From: Escherichia coli
GTDB lineage: Bacteria; Pseudomonadota; Gammaproteobacteria; Enterobacterales; Enterobacteriaceae
Strand: one strand, 5' to 3'
Assembly (NCBI RefSeq): GCF_002854065.1
Contig: NZ_CP024154.1
DNA length: 64,000 nucleotides
Below, piece after piece: positions 9,001-12,000 of this stretch. Every line of letters starts with the position of its first letter. Within the stretch, counting starts at the first letter, position 1. The position numbers are program-made.

Positions 9001-12000
9001 TACAATGTGTATTCATAAGGGCCAGAAACTGCTCAACAACATCCGGGTTAATGCTGGTACTGTGTATTTCATCCTTCATGATGTGTCCTTGTTTTTTATT
9101 ATTTTGCATTTCAGAAAATAACACGATGCCTGCAGCCCGGAAAACAGATGTGTGCACACGTAGTCACTTTCCGGCTTTATTTCTGTCCCTGACACAAAAT
9201 ACGTGGTGGCATGAAAAGGATTGTGGCGGACAGGAAAACGATTAGAATAGCGGCGGGCGCTTGAGGCTGTATGCCGAAAGCGTTTTGTGGACGGCATGTA
9301 GCAGAAAGCCCCAGGCGATTTTTTTATCAATCAACCCAGGGCCCACTGTAATGCCTCAACAACATTATAGTAGCCCGATGACGGCCGAAAGGCAATGGAG
9401 GGGCTGCGATGCCACAACGAACGTTTTTAATGATGTTAATCGTCGTCTGTGTGACGATACTGTGTTTTGTCTGGATGGTGAGGGATTCGCTTTGCGGATT
9501 TCGTATCGAGCAGGGAAATACGGTGCTTGTGGCAACGTTAGCCTACGAAGTTAAACGTTAACGGGCAACACGGCGGCAGGACATCTGCCGCCGGATTGTT
9601 GCGAAGGCTGACCTCAATGCGCCTTGTTTGTCTTTTTTACCGGACGACTGCTGGTTGCTGCTGTCCGGCAGCTATTATTTTTTCCGTCCTGTGCGTCATC
9701 AATTATGACAGTCGCTCTCATTTGGTTGTCTCTGGTTAGATGTATTATTAGATATTTTCGGGGTAATTCGATAAAAGTTATCCACTTCAGCACCAGACTG
9801 AATGATATATGCAATAAGATCTAAACGATGAATCTCGTATCGTGTACGTAACTCCATCATTTCACGCCATGCTAAAATCCTTGATGTTTTCAGTTCAGCC
9901 TCTATAAGTTTCCATGTGTTTGTTGAGATGGCATGTTCTTCCAGCTGACGTAACGAGAACCTATCACTAATGACCAACCATCCCCATCCTCGAGTATGTG
10001 CCCATTTGCGACCTGCATTACTTTTTATTCTCGTGAGACTCAAGGTCATTCGGTCTGTTGGCTTCACTTCCATAAGTAGGCACCGACCATCAACTGTCGC
10101 AATGAGTAAATCTGGATAGTATTTTTTTGATTTGTTTTTAAAACAATATGGAATAGAAAATGGTTGTTCTTGATAGAAAAGAACCTGATCGCAACATTCT
10201 AATAGATTCATTATTTTAAACTCAAGCCCTGATTCGTACTGGACTGTACGACCTAATTTTTGAGAGTAAAAGAATCCAGATATGTCAGTATCATTAACCG
10301 CTCTCTGTGAACATAGCTGTTCTACGGGGGGAGGAGGTGCGATATATTTTGGCCAATGTGTATTGTCTAGCCATTTACTGAATATGAACTCAACTCTTTC
10401 TTTCTTGATTCGGGCTCTTTCCTGAGCGTGAGCGTGTGCTAATTCTGCTCTTCGTTCACGTAACTTCTGCTTTTGTAATTGTGATATTAATGAGAGCGAA
10501 TTTTTTATTTCATCTCGTCTTGCTTTAGGAATGCCTGCGGCAAAAATGATGAATTTGGCGGCTAACTCAGAGGATGTAACGAAATCCCGATGAACAATAC
10601 GATAAATCCATACTGCTATATCATATGGTGAATTACCTATTGAGTTAATAAGGGCTTTAAGGCAAGCTCCAGGTGTCCCTTCATAGCGAGATTTAGCAGC
10701 TAGTAAGCCAAGGGCTCGTTCCTGAAGTTGTCTTACCCTTTCACGGGAAATTCCTAATTTGACGGCAATATCTGCCAGAGAATGAGGTGAATCATCTGTG
10801 CCGAGTCGCATTAGAAGAATATATTGATGTCGTTTATTAGATAAACTTTCGATAGCAGAATGAATTAGCATAATGACATCATGTTCATCGGCTATATAAT
10901 CTTTAAAATCTGTATTGGGTTGGCAGAGGGGGAGTGGGGTATTTTGTTTAAAACTATTCTTTTGTATTTCAACTTTATCATGAGCAATTGTTTTTGCAGT
11001 GCTCAATGATATTAAATTATTGATGATACTATTGTGTTCTTGGCGAGGAATCTTGTTGAAGTAATTGCTGAGGTCATTCACCGTGTTTATATCGTTGAAC
11101 TCAAGAAACTCAGAAGGAAGCAGGCGTTTGATTGCTCCACGTATTCCCCCGGACGATCGTTGATGTGTTTGAGTAAGTTTTTTTAGCGAGACGCCCTCCG
11201 CTATGGATACGAGAAGACGCTGTAACTCTTCAGTATTCCATGGAGTACCATGTCGTGCTGGAAAATTGCTGCGGGATTCAGACATGATTTTATCTTTATG
11301 TTTTCTAGGTACTGCCTTGAGTGTGTGGATATGATAATTATTTATAATGATATTGTTATCTTTTATAGATAACTGATATGCAGAATTGTATTGATTTTGT
11401 CTACAGTGGGCAAGACAGTGCTAAGAATTTGTGGGGAAAACATAGAGACTCCATGCGGCGTCCTGAGATAGACGGCAGACAGGCATTCTGCCTGAAAAGA
11501 AAAAGCCGGTTCAGAGAAAACCGGCTGACGGATTATCGTCTAACAGTTGATAGCTACCTCAAAATACTTCTGCAACAGGAACACCGGCAACTTTTTCCCA
11601 CTCTTTAACCCGATACCGGATCATCTGTGGGAAACGTTCCTTGTACTCATATCCACGTGCAGCCATGGTGTGCATGGTGTTGGCCAGCGTCCTTGATGAG
11701 ATGCCGGAGATTTCCAGTGGGATCATCGGCAGACTCACATATGTAGTGTGGATTTCCAGCTTGCCGTCTTCAGCAACCGTGCGGGTAAAGTTGTGAATAT
11801 CCAGACCAATCACATCCATCACATTGTTCGGATAAATGCGCACATACAGCATGGTGCCGTTTTTAATGTCGATCCCGAAATAACAACTCTTCGAGAATGA
11901 CAGTTGCTCATAATCGCTGGTTGGAGCAAAGTGACAGCTTTCTTTTATCTGCTGAACAACCTGCTGGACTTTCTTTTTTTTCGCTCTGGTTCTCAGATAT

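Follow-up and report, generated by a model that had tools for sequence, protein, structure and literature searches.

An intact pnd cassette of the hok/sok family, in its R16/IncK allele, in a 64-kb stretch of Escherichia coli DNA

Introduction

Is a 50-codon frame, too short for a 60-aa ORF track, the toxin gene of a complete type I toxin-antitoxin locus, and if so, which of the known loci is it? The question is raised by a stretch of 64,000 nucleotides of Escherichia coli DNA (contig NZ_CP024154.1, here called the window), in which a preliminary description had noted such a frame. We are confident that positions from about 9205 to 9623 hold an intact pnd cassette (pndA, pndC, and pndB), that is, a hok/sok-family type I toxin-antitoxin locus of the post-segregational-killing type, in its R16/IncK allele. 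The cassette is already known: pnd was described decades ago in R16 and R483, and hundreds of identical plasmids carry it as an annotated locus. Its weight as a discovery is slight, pnd having already been deleted experimentally in the plasmid pCT. Its value is for annotation, as the toxin falls under a 60-aa ORF cut-off and pndC and the pndB RNA are usually unannotated; the coordinates given here allow the full pnd cassette to be annotated.

Setting and identity of the locus

The frame had been placed between a cluster of small genes and an HTH-nuclease gene. This placement holds, with small minus-strand ORFs forming the 5' flank of pnd and the following gene on its 3' side.

9699..11285, minus strand: 528-aa Sigma70_r4 and TnsA-like-nuclease gene, downstream of pnd and convergent with it

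Over positions 9100-9700, the IncK plasmid pCT and many other conjugative E. coli plasmids are 100% identical to the window, and every regulatory element described below is 100% conserved over hundreds of plasmids among the database matches. When the window is compared with pCT, the cassette is without any difference and the flanks are 98-99% identical; the downstream gene order (TnsA-like/sigma-r4 gene, excA, traY) is shared, whereas an IS21-family insertion present about 2.2 kb upstream in pCT is absent from the window. The pCT counterpart of pndA is annotated as 'Hok/Gef family protein' (WP_001302699.1), and the primers for the pCT 'pndACB (pCT_065)' deletion map to window positions 9310-9349 and 9579-9618.

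As 38 ORFs of at least 20 aa overlap a 2-kb stretch around pndA, a 50-codon ORF is by itself unremarkable. It is the combination of a Pfam family match, an Rfam match of the leader, and 100% identity to annotated plasmids that takes the assignment far beyond chance. A six-frame phmmer search of the 64 kb returned 9409..9561 as the sole match and no second Hok copy. As a separate observation, a second type I toxin-antitoxin locus, a DinQ-like dqlB with an AgrB match, lies 3.3 kb from pnd.

The toxin gene and the frame that overlaps it

The coding features of the cassette and their ribosome-binding sites are as follows.

9409..9561, plus strand: pndA toxin gene, 50 aa, Hok/Gef family (ATG ORF; Pfam match and R16 identity)
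9397..9401, plus strand: pndA Shine-Dalgarno (SD) sequence GGAGG, 7 nt before the ATG (read from the sequence)
9351..9554, plus strand: pndC, a mok-like coupling frame of 67 codons that overlaps pndA in the -1 frame (alignment with pndC of pSTM709)
9338..9341, plus strand: pndC SD sequence AGGG, 9 nt before ATG 9351, aligning with GAGG upstream of the mok ATG

The 50-codon frame said to escape the 60-aa track cut-off is present as an ATG ORF at 9409..9561 on the plus strand. The hok/pnd signature ascribed to it is borne out by a match to Pfam HOK_GEF (PF01848; E=1.3e-12, 47.5 bits against a cut-off of 22), by nucleotide identity to R16 pndA, and by the protein, which is exactly UniRef PNDA1_ECOLX and occurs on at least 1000 contigs. 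We take PNDA1 to be the R16 protein, and R16 presumably to be an IncB/O plasmid. The reference for this identity is 'PndA_R16', a CDS from a Hok survey of 2026 in whose supplement it bears the R16 label; attempts in that survey to clone the R16 PndA CDS without mutations did not succeed (bioRxiv 10.1101/2025.08.07.668861). The SD sequence of pndA is base-paired in both predicted folds, that of the full-length and that of the truncated RNA.

A longer overlapping frame, 9261..9554, exists as listed in the ORF track, and the preliminary description had suggested that it might be a mok/pndC-like frame. The suggestion stands for the coupling frame from ATG 9351 to 9554 and fails for the start at TTG 9261, which lies 5-6 nt from the predicted transcript 5' end and within the tac element described below. 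Only ATG 9351..9554 is conserved as an ORF, because a 1-nt indel relative to IncI1 pnd (for which the annotated plasmid pSTM709 served as reference) shifts the frame upstream of ATG 9351. In position and length, this frame matches the annotated pndC of pSTM709, its stop falls 7 nt ahead of the pndA stop, and its exact 67-aa product is present in public databases, with 90%-identity cluster-mates named 'PndC' or 'counter protein to PndA'. The SD sequence aligned with that of pndC, GAGG, is named as the mok SD in PMC9841398, and the pndC SD is sequestered in the full-length minimum free energy (MFE) fold. By analogy, translation of pndA would be coupled to that of pndC.

It could be argued that the 97-codon frame 9261..9554 is the genuine protein-coding gene and the 50-codon frame incidental, as it is the longer of the two and has a counterpart open frame of similar length in IncI1 pnd. 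We regard this as almost certainly wrong. In Pfam there is no family for PndC or for the 97-aa frame (best E=0.27), the TTG start lies inside tac so close to the predicted transcript start, and the first 30 codons are not conserved as protein, being read in another frame in IncI1 pnd through the 1-nt indel. The catalogued product is only the 67-aa form from ATG 9351, clustered with members named PndC. Substitution pattern and protein identity likewise point to pndA as the frame under constraint: the gene differs from its IncI1 counterpart at 11 nucleotides, 6 of them pndA third positions, and residue differences from IncI1 amount to 5/50 in PndA and 14/67 in PndC, which fits pndA as the selected frame and pndC as one merely kept open. 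Across pnd and hok homologues, the pndC frame is open and its protein sequence poorly conserved.

The mRNA leader and its alternative pairings

Upstream of the toxin gene, the following elements of the mRNA are distinguished.

9221..9248, plus strand: putative pnd mRNA promoter, with -35 TTGTGG (9221-9226), a 16-nt spacer, and -10 TAGAAT (9243-9248)
9255..9411, plus strand: pnd mRNA 5' leader, from a transcript start at about 9255/9256 to the pndA AUG (Rfam RF01794)
9256..9266, plus strand: tac (translational activator), GGCGCTTGAGG, at the mRNA 5' end and identical to the 5' ends of R1-type hok and IncI1 pnd
9278..9283, plus strand: immediate-downstream tac partner AAGCGT, a candidate metastable co-transcriptional hairpin (assigned by inference)
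9306..9312, plus strand: ucb, or anti-SD box, AAGCCCC (folds and Rfam structure)
9373..9376, plus strand: dcb-like box GCCC, which in the open form could pair with the SD region of pndC (RNAalifold)

The promoter, read from the sequence, lies in a stretch conserved in IncI1 pnd, and its -10 hexamer is as far from the transcript start as TATGAT is from the GGCGCTT start of hok/sok. The leader matches the Rfam RF01794 'sok' covariance model over its full length (1-157; 124.7 bits against a gathering threshold of 59; E=2.4e-29). This 'sok' match marks the leader on the mRNA-sense strand and not the antisense gene.

Within the window, tac has three alternative partners, at 9278-9283, 9306-9312, and 9613-9623. 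The MFE fold of the 3'-truncated RNA pairs 9257-9262 with 9278-9283, an arrangement that may correspond to the metastable tac hairpin, a concept set out in PMC9841398. In the full-length MFE fold, ucb pairs with the pndC SD region (9308-9311 with 9339-9342). The Rfam structure and an RNAalifold consensus drawn from 8 homologous leaders join it to tac, and compensatory changes accompany that pairing. That consensus comprises the tac/ucb stem, the hairpin it encloses, and the SD/dcb stem, with double changes at 9 of 19 pairs; the SD/dcb stem joins alignment columns 115-118 to 151-154, with 2 compensatory and 3 one-sided changes, and TAGCC at the dcb-like box (named after PMC9841398) is invariant in 8/8 leaders. 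The single-sequence MFE of the truncated RNA lacks the open tac/ucb form and has the tac/immediate-downstream hairpin instead, and the open form was probed further by constrained folding and comparative folding. When enforced on the truncated RNA, the open tac/ucb fold lies 2.6 kcal/mol above the MFE. The structure comparisons left out an IncHI2 locus without a leader (L010) and a partial copy (L003).

The antisense RNA and its target

The antisense side of the cassette consists of a promoter and RNA on the minus strand and a target loop in the mRNA.

9367..9395, minus strand: predicted pndB promoter, with -35 TTGCCT (9395 to 9390), a 17-nt spacer, and -10 TACTAT (9372 to 9367)
9300..9360, minus strand: predicted pndB antisense RNA (Sok homologue), about 60 nt, ends +/- 3 nt (alignment with R1 hok)
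9354..9362, plus strand: antisense-target hairpin loop CCUCAACAA with the YUNR motif CUCA at 9355-9358 (Rfam consensus hairpin)

A sok-like promoter had been anticipated on the minus strand within about 150 bp upstream and could not at that time be placed with confidence; it is located here at 9395 to 9367, 14-42 bp upstream of the pndA ATG. In an alignment of 8 loci, TTGnnn, a spacer of 17-18 nt, and TAnnnT are kept in every homologue, while the spacer sequence diverges. The hexamers fall in the same alignment columns as the R1 sok promoter at the position that we assume for it, and PndB itself was positioned by alignment with what we take to be the Sok region of R1 hok. From this promoter, PndB would be transcribed on the minus strand. 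A sigma-70/terminator consensus scan, in which a promoter call needs at least 9 of 12 matches, called neither pnd promoter nor the PndB terminator. Both promoters were missed because each scores 8/12, and were placed by alignment instead of by the scan; the terminator was missed because of its poor U-run, a property that the Sok terminator has likewise.

From its 5' end, the predicted PndB has a 5'-GUUGAGGCAUUACAG tail, a terminator hairpin (about 9344 to 9306), and then CUUUCU; its fold (-30.7 kcal/mol) consists of a strong hairpin beside which the 5' tail stays unpaired. The RNA is the complement of ucb, the pndC SD, and the pndC AUG, and its first 7 nt are complementary to the target loop 9354..9362. 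The hok/sok family is defined in part by a U-turn (YUNR) motif within the target loop, with which the 5' tail of the antisense RNA makes contact, and 7 of the 8 homologues in the alignment have a YUNR tetramer at these columns.

The 3' end of the mRNA

Three features lie beyond the toxin gene.

9571..9593, plus strand: GC-rich 3' hairpin, 9 bp, loop GACAU (in all folds; aligns with the hok hairpin ending at about +362)
9612..9623, plus strand: fbi (fold-back inhibition) element CCTCAATGCGCC (full-length fold and 9-locus comparison)
9652..9684, plus strand: terminator-like hairpin with T-run, a possible pnd terminator, uncertain (consensus scan)

The truncated hok mRNA is about 361 nt long. By alignment, the hairpin at 9571-9593 is the expected stop for 3'-to-5' processing, which would yield a truncated active mRNA, and in hok the last stem-loop protects the truncated mRNA (PMC9841398). 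The 3' end of the full-length mRNA could possibly lie at 9652-9684, a hairpin that is not conserved with IncI1 pnd, or at the T-rich run 9624-9638.

The preliminary description had asked for an alignment that included the fold-back element, and fbi is indeed present at 9612-9623 and pairs with tac. The full-length MFE fold joins 9256-9265 to 9613-9623, and forcing fbi to be single-stranded costs 11.2 kcal/mol. Because of its 1-nt bulge, the fbi of pnd escaped an ungapped search with the complement of the 11 nt at the mRNA 5' end, and RNAduplex with shuffles was used instead. In all 9 of the 9 hok-family loci tested with RNAduplex, the best duplex between 5' and 3' UTR lies 50-66 nt past the stop codon, with compensatory changes, examples being the tac/fbi pairs GGCGCUU/AAGCGCC, GGUGCUU/AAGCACC, and GGUGUCUG/CAGACACC. 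As shuffled 3' UTRs reach the individual tac-fbi duplex energies in 2-78 of 500 cases, a weak statistic for single duplexes, support for this pairing comes from positional consistency and covariation.

With the elements in place, one may ask whether the locus has decayed into a hok remnant without function, as many copies of hok on chromosomes have; chromosomal hok loci are often inactive (bioRxiv 10.1101/2025.08.07.668861). Damaged plasmid copies do exist, among them a partial one with an IS3-family transposase gene behind it (L003), one in which the leader is replaced (L010), and copies split in two (H72-H74), and the deletion of pnd from pCT without a phenotype would fit decay. We nevertheless consider decay highly improbable here, as none of the toxin ORF, pndC, the two promoters, tac, ucb, fbi, and the 3' hairpin is missing or interrupted, and the CDS is identical to the R16 gene that resisted unmutated cloning in the survey (bioRxiv 10.1101/2025.08.07.668861).

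Proposed mechanism

For the intact cassette, a mechanism can be modelled on its homologues, R1 hok/sok and R483 pnd, the hok/Sok mechanism being that of PMC9841398. The elements on which it draws are all present, arranged and conserved as described above, and capable of the pairings named; transcription, processing, coupling, and killing would proceed as in those homologues. From a weak promoter, transcription would begin at about 9255 and yield a stable mRNA about 370 nt long. In this full-length mRNA, tac (9256-9266) would be clamped to fbi (9612-9623) and the anti-SD box (9306-9312) would hide the pndC ribosome-binding site, so that, as proposed here, the RNA is neither translated nor bound by the antisense RNA. 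Slow 3' trimming to the hairpin 9571-9593 would remove fbi, whereupon tac would re-pair with the anti-SD box and the pndC SD, its AUG, and the target loop (9354-9362) would be exposed.

In plasmid-carrying cells, abundant and unstable PndB (about 9360 to 9300, minus strand) would bind the target loop and start region, blocking translation of pndC and hence of the coupled pndA, and the duplex would be degraded. Upon plasmid loss, PndB would decay first; PndC and PndA could then be translated, and the 50-aa membrane peptide would kill the cell.

Biological role

Whether such killing serves plasmid maintenance in this backbone is a different matter. In IncI plasmids, pndB neutralises PndA, and pnd has a share in the killing of cells that are free of the plasmid (PMC7602700, PMC5330492), and native R483 pnd mediates post-segregational killing (bioRxiv 10.1101/2025.08.07.668861). 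In pCT, replacement of the locus (pndACB::aph) left stability unchanged over about 80 generations in E. coli or Salmonella, and conjugation, growth, and fitness were also unchanged (PMC4083329), which leaves a contribution of this allele to maintenance putative in its native context. The pCT curing paper PMC6961859 contains nothing on pnd.

It is thus conceivable, if unlikely in our estimate, that the cassette is intact and yet not a determinant of plasmid stability in the IncK backbone, being silent, redundant, or active in another role. Under this reading, such a role could be in phage exclusion or abortive infection, for instance, or in competition among I-complex plasmids that reside together. 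Phage exclusion by hok/sok has been reported, and this favours a non-stability role of pnd. The deletion in pCT concerned the identical locus and had no stability or fitness effect (PMC4083329), deletion of pnd alone from an IncI pESBL plasmid was likewise without phenotype and had an effect only when combined with par and oriT deletions (PMC7602700), and the second type I toxin-antitoxin locus (DinQ-like dqlB, AgrB match) lies only 3.3 kb off. However, a null single mutant is what would be expected when partitioning and conjugative re-transfer mask killing (PMC7602700). All regulatory elements are intact and 100% conserved across hundreds of plasmids, which argues for continued selection on the whole cassette, and pnd of R64 and R483 mediates maintenance or post-segregational killing according to the passages that cite this in PMC4083329 and bioRxiv 10.1101/2025.08.07.668861. 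In any case, this alternative touches the biological role of the locus and not its identity as pnd.

Also speculative, and rather improbable, is the idea that PndB of R16/IncK forms an antisense specificity class apart from that of IncI1, or, in view of the absent stability phenotype in pCT, that the cassette has been selected for a non-maintenance role such as phage exclusion. Should the PndB difference be of consequence, I-complex plasmids, whether co-resident or in competition, would fail to neutralise one another's toxin. The design of antitoxin-based plasmid curing could then be affected by the difference in PndB allele between IncK/B/O and IncI1: pndB supplied from an IncI1-based 'interference' curing plasmid would, if this is true, not work against IncK/B/O plasmids such as pCT.

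Comparison with known pnd and hok/sok systems

Alignment with R64/R483-type pnd and with R1 hok/sok, the comparison that had been proposed at the outset, brings the elements into register, and the pairings are backed by compensatory changes. IncI1 pnd (R64, R483, pSTM709) has the same architecture and element order and is about 91-92% identical in nucleotides from promoter to fbi (window 9242-9623). Its tac is identical, its fbi differs by 1 base, and its pndC also has 67 codons in the same position. The predicted PndB differs from the IncI1 type by 8 substitutions and a 1-nt indel. These differences include several in the stem and 2 within the first 6 nt of the tail that serves in recognition at the 5' end, GUUGAG here against GUCGAA in IncI1. 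In IncI1, the cassette adjoins trbA, whereas in the window about 4 kb of other genes lie between them (trbA ends at about 5204 and the cassette starts at about 9205); homology stops at fbi, and the sequence downstream is unrelated.

With hok/sok of R1/IncF, the cassette shares a Hok/Gef toxin (PndA against Hok: phmmer E=4.6e-9, about 40% protein identity), the same GGCGCTTGAGG at the 5' end, a coupling frame that overlaps the toxin gene, fbi after a 3' hairpin, and antisense promoter hexamers in the same alignment columns. The distance from leader start to toxin AUG is 153 nt in pnd and 173 nt in R1 hok, the pnd leader being shorter because its first hairpin lacks about 18 nt. In pnd, the pairing of fbi takes in 10-11 nt of tac and spans a 1-nt bulge, whereas hok has a 7-bp GGCGCUU/AAGCGCC core. 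PndC and Mok are unrelated in sequence, and PndC has no DUF5431 match.

The srnB-like IncF loci, which adjoin repA, have the same element order, a conserved antisense promoter, and compensatory tac/ucb and tac/fbi pairings (GGUGUCUG/CAGACACC). They differ from the cassette in toxin identity (48-50%), in the sequence of tac, and in an 18-nt promoter spacer.

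Toxin gene and coupling frame

The preliminary description proposed a Hok-family toxin of 50 codons, and this observation is real and far beyond chance, because the product scores 47.5 bits with Pfam HOK_GEF (PF01848; E=1.3e-12; cut-off 22 bits), phmmer run over the six frames of the whole 64 kb gave 9409..9561 as its sole match with no second Hok-like frame, the exact protein is present in databases (UniRef 'Protein PndA ... PNDA1_ECOLX', found on 1000 or more contigs of a public collection), and the 153-nt CDS is nucleotide-identical to the 'PndA_R16' CDS in the supplement of a 2026 Hok-toxin survey (bioRxiv 10.1101/2025.08.07.668861). 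The features of the locus are as follows.

Features of the pnd cassette and its flanks
8178-9079, minus strand: small ORFs 5' of pnd (127, 63, and 80 aa), hypothetical in the IncK plasmid pCT
9243-9248, plus strand: -10 (TAGAAT) of the putative pnd mRNA promoter, with TTGTGG 16 nt upstream (alignment with IncI1 pnd and IncF hok)
~9255/9256, plus strand: predicted pnd transcript start (alignment)
9256-9266, plus strand: tac, the mRNA 5' element, GGCGCTTGAGG, invariant in the window, pSTM709 pnd, and IncF hok/mok
9261..9554, plus strand: ORF-track frame, starting with TTG and overlapping pndA
~9360 to ~9300, minus strand: predicted PndB antisense RNA, 5'-GUUGAGGCAUUACAG..., by analogy with Sok; strong hairpin, then CUUUCU (fold)
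9351..9554, plus strand: pndC, ATG start, 67 codons, extent exactly as annotated in pSTM709
9395 to 9367, minus strand: putative pndB promoter, TTGCCT (9395 to 9390), 17-nt spacer, TACTAT (9372 to 9367) (sequence and alignment)
7 nt 5' of the pndA ATG, plus strand: pndA SD, GGAGG (alignment)
9409..9561, plus strand: pndA, 50-codon ATG ORF, product MPQRTFLMMLIVVCVTILCFVWMVRDSLCGFRIEQGNTVLVATLAYEVKR
9571-9593, plus strand: GC-rich 3' hairpin (alignment)
9612-9623, plus strand: fbi, the fold-back inhibition element, CCTCAATGCGCC (alignment)
9699..11285, minus strand: convergent downstream gene, 528 aa, with a Sigma70_r4 HTH (residues 150-193) and a TnsA-like endonuclease N-terminal domain (366-440)

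The window was aligned with the annotated IncI1 pnd of plasmid pSTM709 and with an IncF hok/mok locus that encodes a protein 100% identical to R1 Hok. The longer frame overlapping pndA had been suggested as a mok/pndC-type coupling frame, and the part that stands is the one from ATG 9351, which has the extent of the annotated pndC of pSTM709; the exact 67-aa product is present in databases, where cluster-mates at 90% identity bear the name 'PndC' or 'counter protein to PndA'. The TTG start does not hold, as the segment 5' of ATG 9351 is unconserved as protein and is shifted into another frame by a 1-nt indel in IncI1 pnd, and TTG 9261 lies 5-6 nt from the transcript start. The 97-aa ORF-track frame gave no match in a Pfam search. 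The pndA CDS differs from that of IncI1 pnd at 11 nucleotides, 6 of them at third codon positions of pndA, and residues differ at 5/50 positions in PndA and 14/67 in PndC; pndA therefore looks like the constrained frame, with pndC needing only to stay open.

A different arrangement is seen in a Vibrio alfacsensis plasmid (locus L006, 58% identical), where an upstream ORF of ~16 codons (380-453) ends with a TGA that is separated from the toxin ATG by 1 nt (TGAAATG). This ORF lacks overlap with the toxin, which suggests termination-reinitiation coupling and not a long mok-type overlap.

mRNA leader and antisense RNA

Rfam RF01794 ('sok') matches 9255..9411 (plus strand) over its full length with 124.7 bits (gathering score 59), and because this match has the orientation of the mRNA and stops at the toxin AUG, it can be assigned to the pnd mRNA leader and not to an antisense gene. 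As a matter of annotation, the 'sok antitoxin' family models the hok/pnd mRNA leader, and automatic annotation with it would assign an 'antitoxin' to the wrong strand. The region similar to IncI1 pnd extends from ~9205, just 5' of the -35, to 9623, the last base of fbi, so that the conserved block and the functional cassette coincide. Sequence 3' of fbi is unrelated to IncI1, being T-rich at 9624-9638 and followed by a terminator-like hairpin (9652-9684) common to the convergent gene.

An antisense promoter, expected on the minus strand in the preliminary description, could be located at sequence level at 9395 to 9367. The R1 sok promoter (TTGCGC-17-TATCCT) occupies the same alignment columns, and all eight divergent leaders aligned (IncK pnd, IncI1 pnd, two IncF hok, IncHI2 hok, a Vibrio plasmid locus, and two srnB-like loci) keep TTGnnn, a 17-18 nt spacer, and TAnnnT there, while the spacer sequence diverges. 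The predicted PndB is complementary to the anti-SD box (9306-9312), the pndC SD (9338-9341), and the pndC AUG (9351-9353), and its nt 1-7 pair with loop 9354-9362 of the Rfam target hairpin, which holds the YUNR tetramer CUCA at a position conserved in 7/8 homologues.

Between predicted PndB (9297-9360) and its IncI1 counterpart (L002 456-520) there are 8 substituted positions and a 1-nt indel. In the predicted recognition tail at the 5' end, two of the first six positions (3 and 6) are changed, and one change pair on opposite hairpin arms gives G.U in the window allele versus U-A in IncI1. It could be speculated that R16-type and IncI1-type PndB represent separate specificity classes, which we regard as unlikely; if true, it would matter for antitoxin-based plasmid curing.

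RNA switch and proposed mechanism

Alignment with hok and with the IncI1 pnd of pSTM709 places fbi, one of the fold-back inhibition elements that the preliminary description proposed to compare, at 9612-9623. In the MFE fold of the full-length transcript, tac (9256-9265) pairs with fbi (9613-9623) and the SD region of pndC is paired with the anti-SD box; with fbi constrained to stay single-stranded, the fold loses 11.2 kcal/mol. In 9/9 hok-family loci, the optimal duplex of the first 14 nt with the 3' UTR falls 50-66 nt past the stop codon, with compensatory changes between tac and fbi (GGCGCUU/AAGCGCC in hok, GGUGCUU/AAGCACC in Vibrio, and GGUGUCUG/CAGACACC in srnB-like loci). As single-locus shuffle statistics are modest (2-78/500), the case for tac/fbi pairing rests on positional consistency and covariation.

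RNAalifold of the eight leaders gives a stem between tac and the anti-SD box (ucb), an enclosed hairpin, and a stem between the SD and its pairing box (dcb), with double changes in 9/19 pairs. In the single-sequence MFE fold of the 3'-truncated RNA, tac pairs with 9278-9283, resembling the hok metastable co-transcriptional hairpin (PMC9841398), and the enforced open form is only 2.6 kcal/mol higher; the predicted switch to the open form is thus supported by comparison of the leaders, whereas the fold of the window sequence by itself favors the pairing of tac with 9278-9283.

Element-by-element correspondence supports the hok/sok mechanism (PMC9841398) for pnd. The full-length, stable mRNA would be locked via tac/fbi until slow 3' processing to the 3' hairpin removes fbi, upon which the RNA would refold so that the translation-initiation region of pndC and the antisense target become accessible. 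In plasmid-carrying cells, unstable PndB would block pndC and hence the coupled pndA; in plasmid-free segregants, PndB would decay, allowing PndA to be made and to damage the membrane. The nucleotide and residue differences from IncI1 pnd in pndA and pndC agree with this picture. It is by analogy with hok/sok that we infer transcription, processing, coupling, and killing at the cassette.

Neighborhood and plasmid backbone

The 'HTH-nuclease gene' noted as a neighbor is confirmed by the Sigma70_r4 and TnsA-like domains of 9699..11285, annotated in pCT as 'TnsA endonuclease N-terminal domain-containing protein'. The gene probably corresponds to pCT_066, which the pCT papers call an unusual 'putative sigma factor', since that gene number adjoins pCT_065 (pndACB) and a Sigma70_r4 domain is present; inactivation of pCT_066 gave no phenotype (PMC4083329). 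No Pfam family was found for the three small upstream ORFs. The window is collinear with pCT at 98.2-99.3% identity, except that a 2.6-kb IS21-family (istA/istB) insertion of pCT is missing at ~7065-7070, and the plasmid is therefore pCT-like IncK/I-gamma and not pCT itself.

Elsewhere in the window, Rfam PK-repZ (RF01087; 53490-53639, plus strand, 162.5 bits) identifies the repZ control-region pseudoknot, which marks an I-complex replicon. About 3.3 kb upstream of pnd there is another candidate type I toxin-antitoxin locus (5679-5766, minus strand, and 6028-6123, plus strand), with an Rfam AgrB match (RF02891; 47.7 bits, threshold 40) beside a 31-aa ORF, MINLLIIVLRAVVAVANAVIALLELIRELVD, at the site of 'DinQ-like type I toxin DqlB' in the pCT annotation.

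Contribution to plasmid maintenance

On IncI plasmids, PndA is neutralized by pndB, and neutralizing pndBCA let an IncI1 plasmid be cured (PMC5330492). In IncI pESBL, pnd contributes to the killing of plasmid-free cells, yet its deletion alone is silent, instability appearing only when combined with par and oriT deletions (PMC7602700). The native pnd locus of R483 is active in post-segregational killing, and no unmutated clone of the R16 PndA CDS could be obtained (bioRxiv 10.1101/2025.08.07.668861). For the exact allele, pCT pndACB::aph left stability, conjugation, growth, biofilm formation, and competitive fitness unaffected (PMC4083329). The identity of the locus is secure, and its contribution to maintenance in a pCT-like backbone is unproven; it may be masked by other functions.

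Comparison with known systems

From 9100 to 9700 the sequence shares 100% identity with many conjugative plasmids of Escherichia, Salmonella, and Klebsiella, including pCT (NC_014477), whose annotation calls the pndA ORF 'Hok/Gef family protein' (WP_001302699.1). The deletion primers for pCT 'pndACB (pCT_065)' of Cottell et al. (PMC4083329) have exact matches in the window at 9310-9349 and 9579-9618, and their check primers match at 9216-9235 and 9682-9701; given the exact deletion-primer matches, this is a locus that earlier work had already named and altered.

Degenerate-looking hok/pnd copies occur on some plasmids: an IncHI2 plasmid of Citrobacter koseri (L010, 1-450) carries relBE in place of the leader and lacks tac, another locus (L003) is a partial copy followed by an IS3-family transposase gene, and in three more (H72-H74) the pnd match is in two pieces across 0.6-1.1 kb.

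Compared with IncI1 pnd, the window locus differs by ~8-9% in nucleotide sequence and lies ~4 kb from trbA, which IncI1 pnd directly adjoins. Compared with R1 hok/sok, its first leader hairpin is shorter, its tac/fbi duplex is longer and bulged, and its coupling-frame protein is unrelated. The cassette is already known, and these differences are not new in kind. The sequence-level defining features of the hok/sok family that could be tested were all found, the predicted switch to the open form being supported by comparison, and, judged by its sequence, the cassette belongs to that family as the R16/pCT allele of pnd.
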